Below are positions 9,043 to 61,171 of a stretch of 64,000 bases of DNA, piece by piece. Each line of letters opens with the position of its first letter. Position 1 is the stretch's first letter. Under the pieces are notes generated by a model. The model was not told the DNA's origin, ran no database searches, and worked only from the letters and a program-made list of their open reading frames with translations. Made by a program: the position numbers and the translations under genes. Origin of the DNA: Treponemataceae bacterium (GTDB taxonomy: Bacteria > Spirochaetota > Spirochaetia > Treponematales > Rectinemataceae); the NCBI GenBank assembly GCA_963667725.2, contig CAXXHO010000003.1:992001-1056000 (forward strand), written 5' to 3'.

Positions 9043-10506
9043 ATGGCATCTGACATGGCGGAAGCCATTCGACAGCTGATCAGCGAGAAGGGCATTTCCG
9101 AGGAACTCATCGTCAATACGCTGCAGGAAGCCCTGCTCGCGGCATATAAGAAGAAATTCGGAACGAGCGAAAACGCCATCATTCGCTTCCGGGACAACTA
9201 TGAAGGCGTGGATATCTACGCCAAGAAAGTCATCGTGGCCGATGACGACCTGGAGGACGAGGTTCTCCAGATGACGCTGGAAGAGGCTCATGATTACGCA
9301 GAGGACGCCGAGGTCGGCGATATTCTCGAAATGCCCGTCGATCCCCAGGAATTTGATCTCCAGTCCGTCATGGTGGCGAAACAGACGACCAGGCAGAACT
9401 TCCGCGATATCTCGCGCGACACCCTCTACGCCGAATACAAATCGAAGCAGGGCGAGCTGATAATCGGCTACTTCCAGCGCGAAAGGAACAATGTCATCTA
9501 TGTCGACCTGGGCAAGGTCGAGGGCATTTTCCCCAAGAAATATCAGTCCCCCAGGGAAGCCTACCACGTCGGCGACCGCATCAAAGCCCTTATTTACGAA
9601 GTGGACAAGGGAAAGAACGGTCTTCAGATCATTCTTTCCAGGAGCCATGCCGAGTTCGTGACCAAGCTTCTCGAGCTGGAAATACCGGAAATCTACGACA
9701 AGACGATAGAGATTTTCAAAATAGTCCGCGAGCCCGGCTACAGGACAAAGGTGGCCGTATTCTCCAAGAGGGACGATGTGGATCCGGTGGGCGCCTGCGT
9801 CGGCCCCAAGGGAATGCGCAGCCAGCTCATAAGCCAGGAGCTCGAAGGGGAGAAGATAGACTTCGTCAAATATGATGTCGATTCCCGTCAGTTCATCAAG
9901 AACGCCCTGTCGCCCGCGGAAGTGAAGACCGTCCATATCATGGACGAGGCCAAGCACACGGCGCTGGCCATCGTGGCCGACAAGGAACTCTCGATAGCGA
10001 TCGGCAAGATGGGGCAGAACGTGAAGCTCGCCAATCGCCTCTGCGACTGGAATATCGATGTGAAGACCGAAGAGCAGTATCTGCAGGACGGCAGGAACAT
10101 CGAACTCAAGCGCGCGGCCGACAGCCTGTTCTCCGACACCAATGAGCAGATCGAAGAGGAAGCGGAAGAATCCGTTCTCCTGTCCGACCTGCCTGGCATG
10201 AAGCCCGAGTGGCTTTCGGCTATGGACGCCGCCGGAGTGAGCCTTGTCGAGGACTTCCTTGAAAAGGACGATGAGGAACTCGCAAGAGTATCCGGTCTGT
10301 CCATCGAGGAAATCCAGATGATCCAGGGCATCATCGAGGAAAATATCGAGATCGTCCAGGAAGAGACCGAGGATTCAGCCGAAACGGCATCCGATGAATA
10401 TACCTGCCCGGATTGCGGCACGGCGGTCACTCCCGACATGAAGAATTGCCCATCGTGTGGCGTTGAACTGAGTTTTGAATATAATAGCGACGACCAGCAA
10501 GCGTAA
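9043..10506 (+). CDS. nusA: Transcription elongation factor NusA with acidic and zinc-ribbon C-terminal extension
   Basis: S1 and KH domains (REPGYRTKVAV, DPVGACVG, AIGKMGQNV). C-terminal CPDC...CPSC. Confidence 0.97.
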   Translation: MASDMAEAIRQLISEKGISEELIVNTLQEALLAAYKKKFGTSENAIIRFRDNYEGVDIYAKKVIVADDDLEDEVLQMTLEEAHDYAEDAEVGDILEMPVDPQEFDLQSVMVAKQTTRQNFRDISRDTLYAEYKSKQGELIIGYFQRERNNVIYVDLGKVEGIFPKKYQSPREAYHVGDRIKALIYEVDKGKNGLQIILSRSHAEFVTKLLELEIPEIYDKTIEIFKIVREPGYRTKVAVFSKRDDVDPVGACVGPKGMRSQLISQELEGEKIDFVKYDVDSRQFIKNALSPAEVKTVHIMDEAKHTALAIVADKELSIAIGKMGQNVKLANRLCDWNIDVKTEEQYLQDGRNIELKRAADSLFSDTNEQIEEEAEESVLLSDLPGMKPEWLSAMDAAGVSLVEDFLEKDDEELARVSGLSIEEIQMIQGIIEENIEIVQEETEDSAETASDEYTCPDCGTAVTPDMKNCPSCGVELSFEYNSDDQQA

Positions 10507-10516
10507 AAGGTAGGAT

Positions 10517-13500
10517 ATGACGGATAATACCGAGAACTCTCAGAAGAAAGTCCATCTCATCAAACAGCCGAAACCGGCCCAAGGCGAGGTACCCGCGACG
10601 CAGGTTCCTGTTTCGCACGAAAAGCCAGAAGAAGAAGCCCAGGCCGAGAGGAAGAAGGTTGTCGTGGTGAAGAAAAAGATCGTGCTGAAGAAGGTGCAGG
10701 CTAAAGTCGTCGCCCATCACGATCTTGAAGGCGGAGAGCAGCCTGCTGAGGTCGTTCAGGTTCCAACTGTTCAGGTCCAGCATGAAAAGACCGCCGCTCA
10801 GCCATCTGAGAAGTTGTCGACTCACGTTCACCATACGGCCGAGCAGGCAACAAGTCCTGCCGCTCCTCCGAGCATGGCGCGGCCCGAAGCCGGGCTTTCG
10901 CGCGACGAAGGTTCGAGCGCGGACCAGAAAAAAGCTCCCGTATCCGTTCTCGCCGCCTTAGGCGAAGCGGCCGCGACCGCATCGACCGCCGCGTCGGTTT
11001 CTCCCGCGGCAGCGACGGAAAATGCGCCATCCTCGCCTTCCGCCCATGACGCTTCCGCAGCGCCGGCGGCAAGCAGGCCGGCTGATGCTTCCGCGTCCTC
11101 TCCTGCCGGTCAGCCGGCACGACGCGACCCCCCTATGAGACCAGCTCAGCCGGCCAGACCGGCTTCATCAGCCAATCAGACTCCTCCGCAGCCAGGCTCG
11201 TCCCCGAGCGGCTATCGCGGAAGCTATCAAAGCAACCCGGCAAGACCTCACGGGACTGCCGGAACCGTCGGCGGCTACCCCGCCAACCGAACTCCGGGCG
11301 ATTCACCCAGGCCTTCCGGCTATCAGGGCAGAAGTGGCGGATATCAGGGACCCTCGGGCTCAGGTGGATACCAAGGTCCCGGCGGTTACCAGGGGCAGGG
11401 CGGCCAGAGTTCGGGCGGCTACCAGGGCGGTTACAGGGGGAATTCCTCTCAACCCTACGATCCCAACAGGCCGAGGCCTCAGGGCTACCAAGGCTCGGGC
11501 GGCTACCAAGGTACAGGCGGTGGCTATCAGGGCCAGGGCGGCGGCCAGAGTTCGGGCGGCTATCAGGGCGGCTATAGAGGGAATTCATCCCAGCCTTACG
11601 ATCCCAACCGACCGAGGCCTCAGGGCTACCAAGGTTCGGGCGGCTACCAGGGTTCTGGAGGCGGCTACCAGGGCACCGGCGGCGGCTATCAAGGGCAAAG
11701 GCCCTATCAGGGTTCCGGAGGATACCAAGGATCCGGAGGCTATCAGGGATCTGGTGGTTACCAAGGCCCTCCGGGAAGCTTTCCCGGGACAAGACCTCAG
11801 TATCCATCTTCGGCCCCGGGCGGATACCCGCGCGGTCCCCGTCCTCAAGGCCCAGGCGGCCCCGGCGCTCCCGGCGGCTATCGTCCCGGCTACCCCGCGC
11901 AGGGCAGACCGGCGGGCAGGGGCGGCAATATGTCGGGCGGACCGAGAGGCGGCGGCTATGGCGGCGCCCGCGGTCCTGCCAATGGTCCTTCTCCCCTCGA
12001 AAGCAGCAAGACAGCCCAGCGCAAACCGGCTCCGAGAAGAAAGCCGGGCTTCGTCCGACGCGAGGATGTGGAACTAGAGAAGGAACTTCAGCTCAAGAAG
12101 AAGGCCGAGGCTCGCGCCATCGCCATTCCCAAGTCCATCGACATCATGGAAAATATCTCCGTCAGCGATCTGGCGAAGAAAATGAATATTAAGCCGGCCG
12201 AGCTCATCGGCAAGCTCATGGCGCTCGGCGTCATGGCTACGATCAACCAGAAAATTGACGCCGAAACGGCGACGATCCTCGCCAGCGAATACAACTGCGA
12301 AGTCAAGATCGTCAGCCTCTATGACGAGACGGTCATCGAAAAGGAAGCCGAGAATCCCGACGACCTCCGTGCCCGTCCGCCCATCGTCACCGTCATGGGA
12401 CATGTCGACCATGGAAAGACGAAACTGCTGGACGCCATCAGGAAAACCGATGTCGTGGCCCACGAATACGGCGGGATAACCCAGCATATCGGCGCATACC
12501 AGGTGGTTACGGCCAAAGGCAACAAGATCACCTTCCTGGACACGCCGGGACACGCCGCGTTCACGAAGATGCGCGCCCGTGGCGCCCAGATTACCGATAT
12601 CGTCATCCTTGTGGTTTCGGCCGTCGAAGGCGTCATGCCCCAGACGAAGGAAGCCCTCGATCACGCCAAGGCCGCCAAGGTTCCCATCATTGTGGCCATC
12701 AACAAGATCGACTTGCCCGAATCCAATCCGGACAGGGTCAAGACTCAGCTTTCCGAGATGGGCCTGATTCCCGAGCAGTGGGGCGGCACGACACAGTTCT
12801 GCGAGATTTCCGCCCTTCAGAAAAAAGGTATTCCCGAACTGCTCGACGCCATACTGCTGCAAGCCGAGATACTCGAACTGCAGGCCAGCTACAAGCGCCT
12901 GGCGGAAGCCAAGATTGTCGAATCACGCATCGATCAGGGCAGAGGCATTGTCGCCACCATCATCGTGGCCACGGGAACCCTGCGCATCGGCGATTCCTTC
13001 GTGGCAGGCATCTACCCCGGAAGGGTAAGGGCCATGTTCGACGACAAGGGCAACCGCGTCGAAGAAGCGACGCCCTCCACGCCGGTCGAGGTTCTGGGTT
13101 TCGAAGGCATACCCAACGCCGGCGATCCCTTCGAGGTCGTTGAAGAGGAAAAATACGCCCGCGCCATCTCCGACAAGCGCCAGGAACTCAAGAAGTACGA
13201 AGAAGGAAAGAACGTCAAGAAAGTCACCCTGGACAACCTCTACGAGACGATTTCGGCCGGAGAGGTCCAGGAACTCAAGGTGATCATAAAGGGCGACGTC
13301 CAGGGCTCCGTCGAGGCGCTCAAGGGCATGCTGGAGAAGCTTTCCACCAAGGAAGTGCGCCTGAATGTCCTGCGCGCGGCCGCCGGCGCCATCTCGGACG
13401 ACGACGTCATGATGGCTTCCGCCTCGGATGCCATCATCATAGGCTTCAACGTACGGCCGATCGCTTCGGCCAAGCTGCTCGCCGACAGGGAAAAAGTCGA

Positions 13501-16311: not shown

Positions 16312-18501
16312 ATGGTACATTCAGTAAGTTGCCAGATCGGCAACGAAACCCTGGTCCTGGAGACCGGCCGCATGGCAAAACAGGCTGGCGGCGCGGTGTT
16401 CGCGACCTACGGTGGTTCGGCCGTCCTCGCGACCGCTTGCTGCTCCGAAAAAGTGACGGAAGGCCTGGATTTCGTTCCCCTCACCGTCGAGTACAACGAA
16501 AAATATTATGCCGCCGGCAAGATTCCCGGCGGTTTCATCAAGAGGGAATCCCGTCCCAAGGACAAGGAAATCCTCGTATCGCGAATCATAGACAGGCCCA
16601 TGCGCCCGCTCTTCGACAAGGCCTTCGGCAGGGAAATCCAGGTCGTTCCGACCTGCCTTTCGACGGATAACGTCAATCCTCCGGACATCGTGGCGATCAA
16701 CGCGGCCAGCGCGGCAGTCCATATCTCCGACATTCCCTTCGCCGGTCCTATCGCGGCCGTCCGCGTGGCTCTCGTCGATGACAAGTACGTCGTCAACCCC
16801 ACCTTCGAGCAGTGCGAGACCGCCAAACTCGAGATCACCGTCTCGGGCACAGCGGCGGGCATCACCATGGTCGAGGGCGGATCCCACGAAGTCTCCGAAG
16901 AGGAGATGATCGGGGCCATCGAGTGCGCCAAGGAACCCATCGCCAAGATCTGCGCCATGATCGTGGAACTCCGCGGCCTCGCCGGCAAGGATAAGCTCCC
17001 CCTCGCGCCCCTCAAGGTCACCCTGAACAAGGAAGAAGAGATCCGCGCTTTCGCTGCGCCGCTCCTCTCCGCGGCCCTCTTCGTGAAAGTGAAGCAGGAA
17101 CGCTACCTGGCCGTGCGCGCCGCCATCAAGCAGACCCAGGAAACCTTCGCCGAAGTCCTCGACTGCGAGGTGCAGCAGAAGCTCTTCTCCGCCCTCATGG
17201 AGGACCTCCAGTACCATATTCTCAGGAACGGCATCCTCGACAAGGGACTGCGCGTCGATGGCCGCGGTCTAGAGGACGTGCGCCCGATCACCTGCGAAAT
17301 CAACGTTCTCCCGAGAACCCACGGTTCGGCCCTCTTCACGCGCGGCGAAACCCAGGCTCTCGCCGTTACCACGCTCGGAACCATTCTCGACGAGCAGATC
17401 CTGGACGACATCGAAGGCGATCGTCGCGACCGCTTCATGCTGCACTACAACTTCCCCCCCTTCTCGGTAGGCGAAACCGGACGTCTGGGAACGGGAAGAC
17501 GAGAAATCGGCCACGGCAGCCTTGCGCGCCGCGCCATTGAGGTCATGCTCCCGCCCAAAGATAAGTTCCCGTACACCATCCGCGTCGTCTCCGAGGTCCT
17601 GGAATCCAACGGTTCCTCTTCCATGGCGACCGTCTGCGGTTCCTCCCTCTCCCTGATGAGCGCCGGCGTTCCGATGCGCAAACCCGTGGCGGGCATCGCC
17701 ATGGGACTTATCACCGACGAGACCCGCTTCGCCGTGCTCACCGACATCCTCGGCGACGAGGACCATCTCGGCGACATGGATTTCAAGGTAGCCGGAACGA
17801 AGGACGGCATCACCGCCTTCCAGATGGACATCAAGATTTCCTCGGTCAGCACCGAAATCCTCACCAAGGCTCTCGCCCAGGCGAAGCGCGGTAGGATGCA
17901 TATTCTCGGCATCATGGAGAAGACGCTCTCCGTGCCCTCTGAAGACATCTCCGCATACGCTCCCAAGGTCGTCAGCGTCAAGGTAGACCAGGAAAAGATC
18001 GGCGCCATCATCGGGCCGGGCGGCAAGAACATCAAGGGAATGTCCGAGAAGTACGACGTCCAGATCAACATCGACGAGGAAGGCACCGTCACCATCTACG
18101 GCAAGAATCAGAAAGCCGCCTATGACGCGCGCGACGCCGTCCTCAGCATGGTCGAGGAACCGGAGATCGGGAAGATCTACGACGGCACCGTCAAGCGGGT
18201 CATGGAATTCGGCGCCTTCATCGAGATCATGCCGGGCAAGGAAGGACTCTGCCATATATCGAAACTCGCCAAGGGCCGGGTGGAACGCGTAAGCGATGTG
18301 GTCAAGGAAGGCGACGCGGTAAAGGTCAAGCTCATGGAAATCGATCACATGGGAAGACTCAACCTCGCCATGCTCGAAGCTCTCGACGAGAACGGACAGC
18401 TGCCGCCCCAGAGCCGCGACGACAGGCCGCCGAGAGACGACCGCGGTCCCAGGGAGCCTCGCAGGTTTGACGACCGGAGGGATTCGTCCCGCAGACGCTG
18501 A
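16312..18501 (+). CDS. pnp: Polyribonucleotide nucleotidyltransferase
   Basis: GSALFTRGETQ, RREIGHG, DHLGDMDFKVAG, KH and S1 domains. Confidence 0.98.
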   Translation: MVHSVSCQIGNETLVLETGRMAKQAGGAVFATYGGSAVLATACCSEKVTEGLDFVPLTVEYNEKYYAAGKIPGGFIKRESRPKDKEILVSRIIDRPMRPLFDKAFGREIQVVPTCLSTDNVNPPDIVAINAASAAVHISDIPFAGPIAAVRVALVDDKYVVNPTFEQCETAKLEITVSGTAAGITMVEGGSHEVSEEEMIGAIECAKEPIAKICAMIVELRGLAGKDKLPLAPLKVTLNKEEEIRAFAAPLLSAALFVKVKQERYLAVRAAIKQTQETFAEVLDCEVQQKLFSALMEDLQYHILRNGILDKGLRVDGRGLEDVRPITCEINVLPRTHGSALFTRGETQALAVTTLGTILDEQILDDIEGDRRDRFMLHYNFPPFSVGETGRLGTGRREIGHGSLARRAIEVMLPPKDKFPYTIRVVSEVLESNGSSSMATVCGSSLSLMSAGVPMRKPVAGIAMGLITDETRFAVLTDILGDEDHLGDMDFKVAGTKDGITAFQMDIKISSVSTEILTKALAQAKRGRMHILGIMEKTLSVPSEDISAYAPKVVSVKVDQEKIGAIIGPGGKNIKGMSEKYDVQINIDEEGTVTIYGKNQKAAYDARDAVLSMVEEPEIGKIYDGTVKRVMEFGAFIEIMPGKEGLCHISKLAKGRVERVSDVVKEGDAVKVKLMEIDHMGRLNLAMLEALDENGQLPPQSRDDRPPRDDRGPREPRRFDDRRDSSRRR

Positions 18502-50494: not shown

Positions 50495-50629
50495 GCTTCG
50501 CCTGATTCCGCGAAAGTCAATATTCACAATGCTCCATCCTCATTTTTGCCGCGTTTTCCCTTGACAGAAAGGGAGCGCCCGTCCCATCATTGGGTCAATC
50601 ACGAATTTTTTTTAAAAAGGGAGGAGTGA

Positions 50630-52315
50630 ATGAAAAAATTGTTAGCAGTCTTCATTTTATTGACCGCTGGCCTATCCATTGCCTTTGCGCAGACGCCTGT
50701 AAATCTCTATGGCCGAGGCGCCCAGGGCAAGAACGGCGTGGTCGCCGCCGCTAAGCCTGAGGCTTCGCAGGTTGGCGTCGATATTCTCAAGAAGGGCGGA
50801 AACGCAGTGGATGCCGCCATCGCCACGGCATTCGCGCTCCATGTCCTGGAACCCAACGCTTCCGGCGTAGGCGGCGGCGGATTCATGATCATCAAGATGG
50901 CCAACATGGACAAGGCCGTCGTCGTAGACTTCCGCGAGTGCGCCCCGGGCGCCTCCACCCCGACGATGTATCTCGGAAAGGACGGCAAGGTCGTTCCCGG
51001 CTCCACCTTCGAGGGCGGACTTTCCGTCGGCGTGCCTGGCGAAGTGAAGGGGCTTCTCTATGCCTTCGATCATTTCGGTTCAGGCAATCTCTCCCGCATG
51101 GATCTCGTGCAGCCGGCCATCGGCTGGGCGCTGAAGGGCGTGCCCGTCACGGTCAACCTCGCCCAGATCATCAATGACAACTACAAGAAGCTCGTGCAGT
51201 ACGAGGAAGGCGCGAAAATCTATCTCAATGAAGGGCTTCCCTATGAAGTAGGCGAGACCTTCACGAACCTGGATTACGCGAACACCCTCGCGAAGATCGG
51301 AATTTATGGCGAAGACGCGATTTACAAGGGAGAAATCGCCGAAGCCATGGTCGCCGAGGTACAGAAACGCGGCGGTATCCTGACCATGGAAGATTTGGCG
51401 AACTATGAAGTGAAGATCCGTGAACCGGTCGTGGGCAGCTATCGCGGCTACAAGATACTCTCCGTGCCTCCCGCTTCTTCTGGCGGAACTCATCTTGTGC
51501 AGATGCTCAACATAATGGAAAATTTCGACGTAGCCAAATCGGTCCAAGGCAGCGCAGCCAACGCCCACCTCTGGGCCGAGACGCTCAAGATGACCTTCGC
51601 CGACCGTTCCAAGTACATGGCCGACACCGATTTCGTCAAGGTTCCGCTGGCGGGCCTCACTTCAAAAGAATACGCGAAAACCCTCGCGGCAAAAATCGAC
51701 GTTAAGAAACCGATGGCATCGGCCACCGCAGGCGATCCCTCGAAGTACGAATCAGGTTCCACCACCAGCCTTTCCGTCATGGACAAGGAAGGCAACATGG
51801 TGAACATCACCAAGACGATCAACTACTTCTTCGGTTCCGGCGTCGTCGTCCCCGGCACGGGCATCATCATGAACGACGAGATGGACGATTTCGTGCCGAC
51901 CCCCGGTTCAGCCAACTCCGTCGAACCCGGAAAGCGCCCCCTCTCCAGTATCAGCCCGACCCTCGTCCTCGATCCCAAGGGCAGATCCTTCATGACGCTC
52001 GGCTCTCCAGGCGCGACACGCATTTTCCCGACGGTAGCCCAGGTCATCTCCAACGTCATCGATTTCGGCATGCCCATACAGGAAGCCATTATCGCCCCCA
52101 GGGTCTTCCAGATGGCCTCAGGCGCCCTCAATCTCGAAGGACGCTATTCTATCAACACCTATGAAGCGCTCAAGAAACAGGGCCATACGGTTACGATCCG
52201 CGGCGATTGGGACGCCTATTTCGGCGGCGTGCACGCCGTTCTTTATGATTACAGCGCGGGCATCCTCTACGGCGGCGCCGATCCCCGGCGCGATGGACAG
52301 GCCGCGGCGTTCTAA
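50630..52315 (+). CDS. ggt: Gamma-glutamyltransferase (exported)
   Basis: Signal peptide, GGNAVDAA, SGVGGGGF, DFRE, autoproteolytic S-TTS, PLSS, GGADPRRDG. Confidence 0.95.
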   Translation: MKKLLAVFILLTAGLSIAFAQTPVNLYGRGAQGKNGVVAAAKPEASQVGVDILKKGGNAVDAAIATAFALHVLEPNASGVGGGGFMIIKMANMDKAVVVDFRECAPGASTPTMYLGKDGKVVPGSTFEGGLSVGVPGEVKGLLYAFDHFGSGNLSRMDLVQPAIGWALKGVPVTVNLAQIINDNYKKLVQYEEGAKIYLNEGLPYEVGETFTNLDYANTLAKIGIYGEDAIYKGEIAEAMVAEVQKRGGILTMEDLANYEVKIREPVVGSYRGYKILSVPPASSGGTHLVQMLNIMENFDVAKSVQGSAANAHLWAETLKMTFADRSKYMADTDFVKVPLAGLTSKEYAKTLAAKIDVKKPMASATAGDPSKYESGSTTSLSVMDKEGNMVNITKTINYFFGSGVVVPGTGIIMNDEMDDFVPTPGSANSVEPGKRPLSSISPTLVLDPKGRSFMTLGSPGATRIFPTVAQVISNVIDFGMPIQEAIIAPRVFQMASGALNLEGRYSINTYEALKKQGHTVTIRGDWDAYFGGVHAVLYDYSAGILYGGADPRRDGQAAAF

Positions 52316-52344
52316 GCCGAATCTTCAGTAACAATGTTTTCTAG

Positions 52345-52372
52345 TGGGTGCCGCTGATATCGGCGGCACCCA
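52345..52372 (+). other. Intercistronic GC-rich hairpin after ggt
   Basis: TGGGTGCCGC...GCGGCACCCA with no U-tract, so more likely a stabiliser or attenuator than a terminator. Confidence 0.5.
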
Positions 52373-52395
52373 TCTTCATAGATAGGGGGAATGGT

Positions 52396-53667
52396 TTGTC
52401 GCAGGAATTCATGATTTTTCTCGTAATGGTTGGCGTATTCATCGTAGGATGTTTCGCGGTGAAATGGCCAGTCTCCATCTCCATGCTCGTGGCATCGGTC
52501 GCCGGCGCGCTCGCGGGGGGGCAGGGGATACCTATCCGCCATCTGGTCGAGGGCAGCTTCGGCTACGTCGATACGATTCTCACCATCGCCACGGCCATGA
52601 TCTTCATGAGCACGTTCAAAGAATCGGGCGGGCTGGAAGGTCTTTCCACCGCCGTAATTAAGCGTTTTCATAAAGTGCCTTCCGTACTGCTTATTCTCTT
52701 GACCTTCGTGGCAATGTTCCCCGGCATGATAACGGGATCGTCCAGCGCCGCTGTCCTGACCGCGGGCGCGGTGATAGCCCCCATCCTGGCTTTGCTCGGC
52801 ATCCCCGGCAGCAATGCCGCGGCTCTTATCGCGATGGCTGGTATATTGGGAATGATAGCTCCGCCCGTCAACCTTCCCGCGATGATCATCGGCGGAGGCA
52901 TCGACATGCCCTATATGGGATTCGAGATTCCCCTGCTTCTGCTCACGGTTCCTCTCGCCGTTTTCTCGGCGCTGTGGTTTGGCTATCGTTACGCGAAAAA
53001 AACCGACATGTCCAAAGTGCTCGCCGCGCTGGATACGACGATGCTTAATAAATATGGCGCCCTGCGACTTTTTTCGCCGGTCATTCTCGTCGTTCTGCTC
53101 ATGGTGACCGATAGGCTTTTGCCAAAATATTCCAATTTCGGCATGCCGCTCATTTTCGCGATCGGAGCCGCCCTTGCCTGCTTCACGGGCAGAAAATTCA
53201 ACATCTTTTCCGCCGCGAAGACCGCGATAGGGCAGGCGCTTCCGGTGCTCGGCATTCTCGTCGGCGTCGGCATGTTCATACAGATCATGACGCTCACGGG
53301 AGTCAGAGGATTCATCGTCGTAAACGCTTTGTCGGTCTCCCCGGCGATGCTCTATATCGCGATAGCGGTAATAATCCCGCTTTTCGGGGCGGTGTCGGCA
53401 TTCGGCGCGGCCAGCGTTCTCGGCGTTCCCTTCCTGCTCGCGCTCCTGCAGAAAGATCAGATCATCACGGCCTCGGCGCTTTCGCTGATCGCGGCATTGG
53501 GCGATTTCATGCCGCCCACGGCGCTGTCGGCCATCTTCGCCGCTCAGGTTGTGGGATTAAAGGGCTACGGCTCTACATTGAAGAAACTGATTTTCCCGGC
53601 GCTTCTCGTTGTCGCATGGGCGCTGATATTCATAATTTTTTCGAAACAGATTCGCGCATTCATATAA
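52396..53667 (+). CDS. DctM-like (TRAP large permease / IT superfamily) transporter
   Basis: About 12 TMs, GMITGSS, GMIAPP, DFMPPT helical hairpins. TTG start after GGGGGA (start uncertain). Confidence 0.8.
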   Translation: MSQEFMIFLVMVGVFIVGCFAVKWPVSISMLVASVAGALAGGQGIPIRHLVEGSFGYVDTILTIATAMIFMSTFKESGGLEGLSTAVIKRFHKVPSVLLILLTFVAMFPGMITGSSSAAVLTAGAVIAPILALLGIPGSNAAALIAMAGILGMIAPPVNLPAMIIGGGIDMPYMGFEIPLLLLTVPLAVFSALWFGYRYAKKTDMSKVLAALDTTMLNKYGALRLFSPVILVVLLMVTDRLLPKYSNFGMPLIFAIGAALACFTGRKFNIFSAAKTAIGQALPVLGILVGVGMFIQIMTLTGVRGFIVVNALSVSPAMLYIAIAVIIPLFGAVSAFGAASVLGVPFLLALLQKDQIITASALSLIAALGDFMPPTALSAIFAAQVVGLKGYGSTLKKLIFPALLVVAWALIFIIFSKQIRAFI

Positions 53668-53679
53668 AAGGAGGCCGCG

Positions 53680-53829
53680 ATGCTGACGACTATTATCTAT
53701 CTTGCGATTCTCGCGGTCGTGCTGGGGCTCACCGTATGGTGTCTCTTGACCTCGAAAAAACCCAGTGAACAGGCTACTGCGGCGATGGTGATCGTGCCTC
53801 TGCTGCTTCGGCTCTTTCTAATAAACTAG
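53680..53829 (+). CDS. 49-aa two-TM membrane microprotein (not in ORF track)
   Basis: AAGGAGG SD, then MLTTIIYLAILAVVLGLTVWCLLTSKKPSEQATAAMVIVPLLLRLFLIN. Fills the gap between permease and deacylase. Confidence 0.75.
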   Translation: MLTTIIYLAILAVVLGLTVWCLLTSKKPSEQATAAMVIVPLLLRLFLIN

Positions 53830-53838
53830 GAATATGGC

Positions 53839-55005
53839 ATGAAAAAACATCAAATTACGGCAGCTATTTTCCTCATGCTCGCTCTCGGCGCCGCGATCGC
53901 GGCAGGCTTTTCTTTCCTCTCGATGCGAAAGGCTGAACCCATCGTAAAGGGTCCCGGCGTCTCGGAAGTTAAAATGCTCTCTGACTGGTTTCCCGGACTG
54001 AAGGGATCAGCGGGTGATACGGAAGTATACATCCTTAAGTCGGCAGCCTCGCCAGATGCGATGACAACGACAAAGACAGAGACGGTACCCGACGCGTCCA
54101 TGCTCATCTTGGGCGGCACTCATCCCAATGAACCTTCCGGCTTCATGGCGGCCGTACTGCTCATTGAAAACGCCCTGCCTTTATCAGGAACATTCTATGT
54201 CATACCAAGAGCTAACGCTTCCGGCTTCACTCACAATGACCCTCAGGAAGGATCGCCCCAGCGTTTCAGTATAAAAACCGCCAACGGATCCCGCACTTTC
54301 CGCTATGGATCACGCGCCACCAATCCGATCCATCAATGGCCAGACCCGGACGTCTATATACATGCTTCCTCGGGGCAAAAGCTGTCAGGAAGCGAAACGC
54401 GCAACCTCAATCGCGGCTATCCAGGCAGGCCGGACGGAACCCTCACCGAAAAGGTATGCTACGGCATAACTGAGATGATCAAGGCTGAAAAAATCGCCAT
54501 CACCGTCGATCTCCACGAGGCCTCGCCTGAGTACCCCGTGAATATGGCCATGGTAGCCCATCCCAAGTCCATGGACCTGGCTTCTTCTACCGTCATCGGT
54601 CTCGAAATGCAGGATATCGCCATAAGTCTCGAGCCTTCGCCCGTGAACCTGCGAGGGCTGACGCATCGCGAGTTAGGCGATTTTACCGATACATTGCCTG
54701 TGTTGATGGAAACGCCCAACGCTTCCCAGGGACGCCTGCGCGGCAAGACCGACGAAGCGCTTGTCCTGACCGGCAAAGACAAGTGGTATGTGCGCGCCCA
54801 GAAACTGGGCCGTCTCTACGTGCCCTACGATGAGAATGGGCATCCTCTGGAGGAACGCGTGGGAAGGCATCTCGCGGGCATTTCGGAACTGGCTTTTTCC
54901 TGGACGATGCTCAATGAAAACCGTCCTCTGGAATTTTCGGGACTGCCCACTTTCGCGGAAATCCAGGAAAAAGGATTGGGAACCTGGCTGAAAGACGTGA
55001 ATTGA
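53839..55005 (+). CDS. Succinylglutamate desuccinylase/aspartoacylase-like (M14) zinc hydrolase with N-terminal anchor
   Basis: GGTHPNE (HxxE), NLNRGYPG, DLHE, later ETP. Hydrophobic N-terminus. Confidence 0.82.
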   Translation: MKKHQITAAIFLMLALGAAIAAGFSFLSMRKAEPIVKGPGVSEVKMLSDWFPGLKGSAGDTEVYILKSAASPDAMTTTKTETVPDASMLILGGTHPNEPSGFMAAVLLIENALPLSGTFYVIPRANASGFTHNDPQEGSPQRFSIKTANGSRTFRYGSRATNPIHQWPDPDVYIHASSGQKLSGSETRNLNRGYPGRPDGTLTEKVCYGITEMIKAEKIAITVDLHEASPEYPVNMAMVAHPKSMDLASSTVIGLEMQDIAISLEPSPVNLRGLTHRELGDFTDTLPVLMETPNASQGRLRGKTDEALVLTGKDKWYVRAQKLGRLYVPYDENGHPLEERVGRHLAGISELAFSWTMLNENRPLEFSGLPTFAEIQEKGLGTWLKDVN

Positions 55006-55016
55006 TCGAGCCGAAA

Positions 55017-55634
55017 CTATTGTTTTTTCGAGAACCGGCCCGCCAGCTCAGCGATCCAAGCGCCCTGCGCCTTCGCCGCTCCAAGCTCGTGTTCGCTCGG
55101 CATTCTGGCGCCGTCGCCGCCGGCTATGGTCGTCGCGCCGAAGACCGAGCCGCCATTGACCTCCGTGGTGTCGAAGAGGGGCGGATACTTGGCGTAGGGC
55201 AGGCCGACGACGACCATGCCGTGGGCGAGGAGCGTGCTATGCACATGATGAATCGTCGTGACGGCGCCGCCGTGCTGGGTCGCGCTCGAACTTATCACGG
55301 ATCCTACTTTGCCCACGAGTCCGCCCCGTCCCCACACTGATCCGGTGGAATCGAAGAAAGCTGCCACCTGGCTCGGCATATTCCCGTAGCGGGTGGGCAC
55401 GCCAAAGATGATGCCGTCGGCCCATTCGAGGTCTTCCGGCGCGACGAGAGCCACGCCCGCAAAGGCTTTTTGAGCCTCGATCGAGTGCGTGATGGAGAGT
55501 ACGTCGGGCGACAACGTCTCGGCAATGCGCAGGAGCTTCACTTCGGCTCCCGCGCTTTTCGCGCCTTCCTCGGCCGCCTTGGACATCTGATACATATGGC
55601 CGTACATCGAATAAAAGACTATCGTGATCTTCAT
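55017..55634 (-). CDS. wrbA: NAD(P)H:quinone oxidoreductase WrbA
   Basis: YSMYGH, GVPTRYG, TQHGG, GATTIAGGDG.R.PS. Confidence 0.92.
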   Translation of the reverse strand: MKITIVFYSMYGHMYQMSKAAEEGAKSAGAEVKLLRIAETLSPDVLSITHSIEAQKAFAGVALVAPEDLEWADGIIFGVPTRYGNMPSQVAAFFDSTGSVWGRGGLVGKVGSVISSSATQHGGAVTTIHHVHSTLLAHGMVVVGLPYAKYPPLFDTTEVNGGSVFGATTIAGGDGARMPSEHELGAAKAQGAWIAELAGRFSKKQ

Positions 55635-60868: not shown

Positions 60869-61171
60869 ATGAGAAAGCGGTACGACAAAGAATTCAAGGC
60901 CAAAGTAGCCTTGGAAGCCCTGAAGGGCGAAAAGACTCTGCAGGAACTGGCGATTACTTACTCGGTCCATCCGAACATGATCGCGCTCTGGAAAAGGCAA
61001 CTTTCGGAGCACGCATCGGCGCTCTTTGAGAAAGAAGGGAAGGATAAAACAACAGAAGACGCCACGAGGCAAAAGGATGAACTGTACAAACAGATAGGAC
61101 AGCTCCAAGTGGAGAACGACTACCTTAAAAAAAAATACAAACAACTGTACGGGACCGATCCGAAATGGTAG
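60869..61171 (+). CDS. IS3-family transposase OrfA
   Basis: RYDKEFKAKVALEA HTH and LYKQIGQLQVENDYLKKK zipper. Confidence 0.92.
   Translation: MRKRYDKEFKAKVALEALKGEKTLQELAITYSVHPNMIALWKRQLSEHASALFEKEGKDKTTEDATRQKDELYKQIGQLQVENDYLKKKYKQLYGTDPKW

Follow-up and report, generated by a model that had tools for sequence, protein, structure and literature searches.

Why should IF2, an essential factor of bacterial translation initiation, carry ahead of its folded core a long tyrosine-rich repeat tract resembling the low-complexity domains (LCDs) of eukaryotic RNA-handling proteins? This question is raised by infB in a 64,000-nucleotide stretch of the genome of a Treponemataceae bacterium (Rectinemataceae; assembly GCA_963667725.2, contig CAXXHO010000003.1, positions 992,001 to 1,056,000 of the forward strand), which we refer to as the window and to which coordinates refer unless another contig is named. 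A sequence-only reading had proposed that the tract is a FUS/Sup35-like prion-like domain whose repeats are under purifying selection, which would make IF2 a condensate- or amyloid-forming factor. We find that the tract is under purifying selection and that its Tyr density, even Tyr spacing, preference for Tyr over Phe and for Arg over Lys, and slight positive charge are kept while its repeat units turn over. Since these are the features that favour liquid condensation of prion-like LCDs, we consider it rather likely that the tract is a conserved, predicted-disordered Tyr/Arg sticker-and-spacer module, through which free IF2 would bind RNA multivalently and condense reversibly under stress.

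Pfam places IF2_N at aa 544-594, GTP_EFTU (the G domain) at aa 623-780 and IF-2 at aa 896-1009, and the protein has the make-up of a bacterial IF2 (IF2_N, G domain, domain II, C1/C2), encoded in the order rimP-nusA-infB-rbfA-truB-ribF, which includes the nusA-infB-rbfA operon. It is the one full-length IF2 match in the genome, and the named records nearest to its core are spirochaete metagenome-assembled genomes (MAGs), several of them titled Rectinemataceae (97%), and Rectinema subterraneum (81%). The N-terminal 543 residues are divided into a head (aa 1-70), a linker (aa 71-204), the low-complexity tract (aa 205-493) and a basic helical segment (aa 496-543). Residues 207-495 consist of 32% Gly, 15% Pro, 11% Gln, 11% Ser, 10% Tyr and 8% Arg, with 4 acidic residues, no Lys and 1 Phe; aa 205-493 hold 29 Tyr, 22 Arg, no Lys, 1 Phe and 3 acidic residues. 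The original count of 17 YQG units, mostly (G/S)GYQG, in a nearly acid-free tract was correct, 14 of the 17 occurring as [GS]GYQG. RG/RGG motifs had been placed just ahead of the core; they are present (two RGG in this IF2, an AGRGG in the tract region among them), but about 50 basic/helical residues (aa 496-543) intervene before the first Pfam domain.

The tract is real and in frame rather than an assembly artefact, because a contig from run X2, which may be the source sample, agrees with it at every position across 10534-12400, contigs from run X5, from another study, cover the tract with few changes, and the nearest congener carries the same tract. Tandem Repeats Finder (TRF) detects a 141-bp period at 11399-11686, corresponding to a long repeat in two copies. 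The first 38 codons of the copies at 11399 and 11540 differ at 11 positions, all 11 synonymous, exactly as the sequence-only reading had it; that comparison stopped one codon before the first replacement, and over the full 47 codons there are 14 silent and 2 replacement differences. If the copies were evolving neutrally, the probability of such differences would be about 1e-7 to 7e-7 (38 codons) or 2e-6 to 9e-6 (47 codons).

Selection was then estimated by Nei-Gojobori counts on pairwise codon alignments, with omega as the ratio of replacement to silent divergence (dN/dS). Against a relative of the same genus (G002), the tract (aa 226-495) shows 44 silent and 5 replacement changes (omega 0.04), whereas the linker (aa 71-225) shows 32 silent and 39 replacement changes (omega 0.39; Fisher p = 3e-7 for the two sets of counts). 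All 29 Tyr are retained in this comparison, five of them with an altered codon. A second relative (G001) gives omega values of 0.08 for the tract, 0.34 for the linker and 0.024 for the core, with 26 of 26 aligned Tyr retained. Tract dN was lower than linker dN in all of 16 disjoint congeneric pairs, among which three of genus g17 are saturated and one has a core (G073) that is apparently partly mis-framed; tract omega, estimable in 13 of the 16, ranged from 0.05 to 0.30 with a median of 0.084, and was below linker omega in 9 of the 10 pairs in which both could be estimated. Among the differences listed for run X5, the tract has 9 silent and 1 replacement, and the linker 4 silent and 2 replacement. 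For comparison, bacterial N-terminal extensions are reported to have a mean omega of 0.44 (Fer et al., 10.64898/2026.02.08.704698), against 0.04-0.08 for the spirochaete tract. The proposal of purifying selection on the repeat is thus borne out by comparison across orthologues.

Such a tract might instead be a tolerated spacer made by slippage, its low dN arising either because an abundant essential protein must avoid harmful residues or because the alignment of repeats is biased. The array does turn over. The long duplication is also present in G001, G002, G005 and G046; when its two copies are compared across 23 codons, 9 differ in the window genome (G000), 9 in G002, 1 in G001, 5 in G005 and 11 in G046. 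The duplication is older than the split between G000 and G002, since the copies differ at 9 of 23 codons and the orthologous first copies of these two genomes at 3 of 23; in other lineages the copies have been re-homogenised or re-made. IF2 is moreover listed first among bacterial proteins for low-complexity regions (PMC6821194, Table 1). However, the adjoining disordered linker of the same protein has an omega roughly 10-fold higher, and 10% Tyr with Phe excluded is not needed by a spacer. Alignment bias in repeats is not the cause of the low omega, because 200 runs of a neutral simulation with an inserted duplication, put through the same aligner, gave a mean omega of 0.94 and never fell below 0.44. 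The linker contrast and the simulation largely refute the notion of a neutral spacer, which we regard as highly improbable. The earlier statement that the repeats are not the product of slippage therefore holds for the protein grammar and fails for the array itself.

Constraint at the nucleotide level was considered as well. Overlapping and antisense open reading frames (ORFs; 11133-11807 on the minus strand and 11334-12077 on the plus strand) were rejected as its source because the alternative frames are interrupted in several relatives and the tract has diverged more at silent sites than the core has (dS 0.22 vs 0.13); the scarcity of stops in the alternative frames over the tract is owing to repeat content. 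No Rfam match at the gathering threshold was found between 7000 and 19000 that would indicate an RNA-level element. Codon use is more varied in the tract than in the core (GC content at third codon positions 0.63 vs 0.77; TAT for 13 of 29 Tyr vs 1 of 14), as would be expected both from relaxed codon choice and from selection against deletion between repeats. In two relatives tract and core lie in different reading frames, the break falling at a different place in each and the tract remaining intact in another frame; programmed frameshifting was rejected as an explanation, and these frameshifts, at the tract end (L157 in G057, L163 in G072), are probably assembly indels. Among 48 family entries, a search for shorter IF2 isoforms, covering canonical starts, found no conserved ATG, GTG or TTG preceded by a well-spaced Shine-Dalgarno sequence between tract and core; the Met at aa 474 is replaced by Leu or Phe in several relatives.

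To define what is conserved, we compared the IF2 N-termini of the family, for which 69 genomes were searched, 48 N-termini tabulated and 45 scored, leaving out the two frameshifted entries (G057, G072) and one mis-fetched region (G014). Many family MAGs break at contig ends within the tract; these stand outside the counts, and databases will consequently under-represent it. The best low-complexity segment contains at least 10 Tyr in 42 of the 45 and at least 20 Tyr in 31. The dominant unit varies by genus (GSGGYQG, GGYGGQR, GYPPRQG, YQGSNYQ, RPGGYQG) and tract length ranges from 88 to 310 residues; Tyr density stays near a median of 0.10 (10-90% range 0.08-0.115), and net charge per residue lies between 0.055 and 0.117, around +0.07. 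Pooled family tracts contain 906 Tyr to 33 Phe (27:1) and 728 Arg to 6 Lys (121:1), ratios to be read with the caveat that the score setting segment boundaries rewards Tyr and penalises Lys; the proteome background is 2.9% Tyr to 4.4% Phe and 6.0% Arg to 5.1% Lys, and whole family N-termini, independent of that score, still give 958 Tyr to 87 Phe. Aromatic spacing in the window tract has a coefficient of variation of 0.51, a value as low being reached in 0 of 1000 shuffles, with no close pairs where 5.7 are expected, and spacing is more even than in shuffles in most family tracts. The expected FET-like grammar and conserved Tyr spacing are thus found in relatives. The emphasis once placed on RGG was overstated: of 764 Arg counted across the family, 456 precede Pro and 115 precede Gly, and any RGG occurs in 25 of 45 N-termini.

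The physical character of the tract was assessed by structure prediction and composition scores. For almost the whole of aa 1-514, AlphaFold2 (AF2), given a 32-sequence alignment, returned a predicted local distance difference test score (pLDDT) below 50 and modelled no secondary structure; the tract alone gave no structure, with a predicted template modelling score (pTM) of 0.13. The protein is thus predicted to have the long disordered N-terminal extension that characterises condensate-driving IF2, in keeping with the disorder first suspected. It could be supposed that the Gly-periodic repeats (GYQ-GSG) fold as a polyproline-II/glycine-rich bundle or a beta-solenoid, since Gly occupies every third position in aa 391-416 and folded glycine-rich bundles such as the Obg fold do exist. 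Set against this are the AF2 results and the units of 6, 7, 8 and more residues, which break register and vary among genera, and we consider a fold of this kind extremely unlikely.

A true prion or amyloid, by which IF2 would switch to a self-templating, heritable aggregate that lowers initiation as Sup35 does, was the other half of the original proposal. The PLAAC-type best-60 score of IF2 (computed with an approximate parameter table) is 31.2, above the cut-off of 20 used in PMC6400439 and first among 3094 genes, the runner-up scoring 9.9, in a ranking built on crude gene calls (rbfA was mis-called). GYQG is also similar to the Sup35 oligopeptide repeat, and some relatives exceed the PAPA-type threshold (up to 0.125, on an approximate scale), while the IF2 of G124 has Asn/Tyr repeats with 34% Q+N. 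The window tract itself, however, has 15% Q+N, 3% Asn, 16% Pro, 32% Gly and 8% Arg, and its PAPA-type maximum of -0.001 is below the threshold of 0.05, so that it lacks the high Q/N, low Pro and charge, and PAPA-type score of a Sup35-type domain. Charge is inhibitory to the formation of prions, and liquid assemblies are associated with little Asn and evenly spaced aromatics (PMC7865556); IF2 is, furthermore, essential and single-copy here. The prion proposal thus fared poorly, and we judge it very unlikely. By contrast, the tract has the properties of a FET/hnRNP-type LCD, with a PLAAC-type score above 20, many evenly spaced Tyr, Tyr over Phe, Arg over Lys and few acids. It is not a member of the FET protein family, as Pfam gave IF2/GTPase domains alone, with no RRM or zinc finger.

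How a condensing module of this type might work can be outlined from studies of eukaryotic LCDs and of other IF2 proteins. In prion-like LCDs Tyr is a stronger sticker than Phe, Lys weakens assembly and net charge weakens homotypic assembly (10.1101/2021.01.01.425046); assembly of FUS is driven by Tyr-Arg contacts with Gly maintaining fluidity, and uniformly spaced aromatics are proposed to favour liquid-liquid phase separation over solids (PMC7865556). In the spirochaete IF2, some 30 evenly spaced Tyr would engage Tyr, Arg and RNA bases through pi-pi and cation-pi interactions, and the Gly/Ser/Gln/Pro spacers would keep the assembly fluid. At about +0.07 per residue, the net charge would work against condensation of IF2 by itself and in favour of droplets formed jointly with RNA. 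In cold or starvation, with ribosomes and initiator tRNA in short supply, IF2 may be stored in RNA droplets, which ribosomes and initiator tRNA would then dissolve, an effect reported for the E. coli factor. The array itself could be renewed through slippage or unequal exchange, its amino-acid grammar being filtered by selection.

The main rival to a condensing module is that the tract serves as a stoichiometric RNA- or partner-binding arm (for 30S/rRNA, an mRNA leader or NusA), tethering IF2 or chaperoning RNA without meaningful condensation, and that selection acts on its short motifs. The [GS]Y[GQ] and RG/RP elements resemble the YGG/RGG motifs of RNA-binding low-complexity regions (PMC6821194), and the E. 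coli IF2 N-terminus binds NusA (PMC12297416). The non-repeat motifs AG[TR]VGG, AGNL[AS] and PYDPNR are kept, the first two also where families lack the Tyr tract: by a post-hoc regular expression, 22 of 43 family members have AG[TR]VGG or AGNL[AS] in the disordered N-terminus of IF2, as do 9 of 9 in family f3, 4 of 4 in f4, 2 of 3 in f6 and 5 of 5 Sphaerochaeta. This motif seems to predate the Tyr tract and may be a binding site for a partner. However, units and copy number vary widely by genus while bulk Tyr density and charge are constant, which fits selection on bulk properties better. We therefore think a purely stoichiometric arm unlikely, though well short of improbable, and the two ideas are compatible rather than exclusive.

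A number of observations weigh against a condensing module, in addition to the built-in preference of the segment score. Retention within the motifs is much the same whatever the residue (Tyr 0.93, Gly 0.92, Arg 0.95, Asp 0.94), so the constraint falls on whole motifs and plain RNA or partner binding fits equally well. In the tenth of the pairs with both values estimable, tract omega exceeded linker omega. Even spacing is a trivial consequence of tandem repeats, and the AF2 model is also weak at places within the core, which makes low pLDDT soft evidence for disorder. Finally, the sister families f3 and f4 (13 genomes) are without the tract, their whole N-termini having 2-7 Tyr and at least as many Phe, and tracts in genus g17 are short and mostly non-repetitive, with 6-13 Tyr; the tract is therefore dispensable over evolutionary time.

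A FastTree phylogeny of 111 IF2 cores maps the tract to a clade of families f1, f6, f5 and f2 (support 82). Searched with the tract alone as query, 7988 candidates (lengths 622-1980) were scored and 11 matches obtained, all IF2 by Pfam. Outside the family, the best IF2 segment contains 10 or more Tyr in 5 of 54 genomes. Separate GYQG arrays are present in IF2 of Sphaerochaeta (L074, L076, L077, L080; GYQGNNP up to 8 times) and separate GGYQGNR repeats, 6-8 times, in family f17 (L201, L204, L216), which we take to resemble Leptospira; their occurrence in distant spirochaetes suggests independent, repeated origin. Members of family f11 have Asn/Tyr-rich N-terminal tracts (L200, at G124:C19:81170-84380, with NTGGYNN 9 times and 34% Q+N; L212, in G086, with 47% Q+N), nearer to Sup35 in composition than the window tract. 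A metagenome scan for triple YQG gave at least 119 loci; among the matches listed, one aligned to the IF2 core, two further ones are IF2-tract-like by eye and the others are unrelated or non-coding. YQG repeats are consequently not IF2-specific, and the scan carries no information on IF2 distribution beyond spirochaetes.

Both IF2 condensation and IF2 prion-like domains are already in print, which limits the novelty of these observations. The intrinsically disordered region (IDR) of E. coli and Caulobacter IF2 is reported to drive RNA-dependent droplets, and E. coli IF2 to form reversible cold-induced foci linked to fitness in the cold, with condensates dissolved by 70S and tRNAfMet (Ghosh et al., 10.1101/2025.02.02.631968); the proposed condensate role of the spirochaete tract gains support by this analogy. 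The two share the protein and the position, a long predicted-disordered extension before the core, but the N-terminal 309 residues of E. coli IF2 are rich in Ala, Glu, Arg and Lys with a single Tyr, whereas the spirochaete tract is nearly acid-free and Lys-free, with 10% Tyr. The main text of Ghosh et al. makes no mention of tyrosine, aromatic, prion or Spirochaet. Truncation of bacterial N-terminal extensions is reported to give stress phenotypes, and certain exchanges of IF2 N-termini may not be viable (Fer et al., 10.64898/2026.02.08.704698). Predicted prion-like domains have been catalogued in IF2 (548 orthologues in nine phyla with a coverage of 0.10, Harrison 2019, PMC6400439; 233 sequences, Iglesias 2015, PMC4606120), and by PLAAC-type score the spirochaete tract would belong to this set. 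The catalogued regions are overall N/Q-rich and sporadically conserved, and the main text of these surveys contains no selection test and no spirochaetes; the spirochaete tract is instead Gly/Tyr/Arg-rich, occurs in 42 of 45 family members and is under strong purifying selection.

With the LCDs of FET/hnRNP proteins (FUS, TAF15, hnRNPA1) and the tails of plant GRP7, the tract shares evenly spaced Tyr in Gly/Ser/Gln spacers, Tyr over Phe, Arg over Lys and an RNA-handling protein as host; it differs in being non-homologous, in lacking an RRM or zinc finger, and in its high Pro and in Arg that is mostly in RP rather than RGG. The interleaving of Tyr and Arg in one tract is nearer to hnRNPA1 and GRP7 than to the FUS N-terminus. 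With the N domain of yeast Sup35 it shares G/Y/Q oligopeptide repeats that lie N-terminally in an essential translational GTPase, but its Q+N is much lower, its content of Pro, Gly and Arg is higher and its PAPA-type score is sub-threshold. We found no Tyr-sticker IF2 tract of spirochaetes described in the open-access literature, although the surveys of 39,197 and about 800 IF2s in the two bioRxiv papers (Ghosh et al.; Fer et al.) may include such proteins. What is new is the Tyr/Arg chemistry, against the charged E. coli IDR, together with strong selection and an apparently repeated origin in spirochaetes. The boldest extension would be that spirochaetes repeatedly gave IF2 a eukaryote-style Tyr-sticker domain (GYQG in the Rectinemataceae clade, Sphaerochaeta and a distant family; Asn/Tyr in another) and that IF2 is the single scaffold of a bacterial stress granule, maturing to a self-templating, heritable Sup35-like initiation switch; we would give such a scenario very little credence.

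The role of the variable IF2 N-terminus is a long-standing question that has lately been tied to stress condensates in E. coli. The spirochaete lineage offers a natural experiment, in which the same module has FUS-like Tyr/Arg chemistry in place of the charged chemistry of E. coli, and swaps of the tract onto E. coli IF2 could tell condensation as such from specific sequence as the selected function. The tract is also a clean example, from bacteria, of a disordered repeat whose bulk grammar is under selection while the array keeps turning over. The features of the locus are collected in the table.

Features of infB and its surroundings in the window
Feature	Position	Strand	Basis
nusA, gene upstream of infB	9043..10506	+	Pfam; E. 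coli product binds the IF2 N-terminus (see text)
Shine-Dalgarno-like sequence 5' of the infB ATG	10506..10514	+	AAAGGTAGG before ATG 10517; partial complementarity to the genome's 16S 3' end GATCACCTCCTTT
infB, translation initiation factor IF2, 1131 aa	10517..13912	+	ORF list and Pfam domains
N-terminal head, aa 1-70, conserved; LIKQPK and KKVVVVKKK motifs	10517..10726	+	omega 0.16 vs G002; invariant columns in 32-sequence alignment
Linker, aa 71-204, Ala/Pro/Ser/Glu-rich, disordered, weakly constrained, internal control	10727..11128	+	omega as in text; no Tyr; pLDDT <50
Low-complexity tract, aa 205-493, Tyr/Gly/Gln/Ser/Pro/Arg	11129..11995	+	best-scoring segment; omega as in text; predicted disordered
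Non-repeat short motif, aa 243-257, AG[TR]VGG-type, common to other spirochaete families	11243..11287	+	post-hoc regular expression over IF2s
Block of 17 YQG units, aa 267-417	11315..11767	+	sequence count
Long repeat copy 1, 47 codons	11399..11539	+	TRF, sequence
Long repeat copy 2	11540..11680	+	TRF, sequence; compared with copy 1 in text
RG/RGG segment, aa 466-486	11912..11974	+	sequence; strict conservation in the family absent
Basic segment and predicted helix, aa 496-543, entering the core	12002..12145	+	0 replacements vs G001 and G002; helix 515-536 (predicted)
Folded IF2 core: IF2_N, G domain, domain II, C1, C2	12146..13909	+	Pfam; omega 0.006 vs G002

Several further observations were made in the same genome. 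NusA has a helix-hairpin-like region and then, at its C-terminus, a predicted zinc ribbon (CPDC...CPSC, aa 452-476) in place of acidic repeats of the E. coli type. PNPase carries a charged, low-complexity C-terminal tail (18380-18501; RDDRPPRDDRGPREPRRFDDRRDSSRRR). In the crude gene set, a candidate ORF at G000:C3:1216005-1216967 has more than 55 prolines in an unbroken run. At 50625-55333, contigs of run X6 (which we only guess to be RNA) cover the genes at 50630-55005 in long pieces and begin 5 bases ahead of the ORF, coverage of neighbouring stretches being patchy; contigs of this run also extend over parts of the IF2 tract. A 100-residue ORF at 60869-61171 is, by eye, presumably like orfA of an IS3-type transposase.

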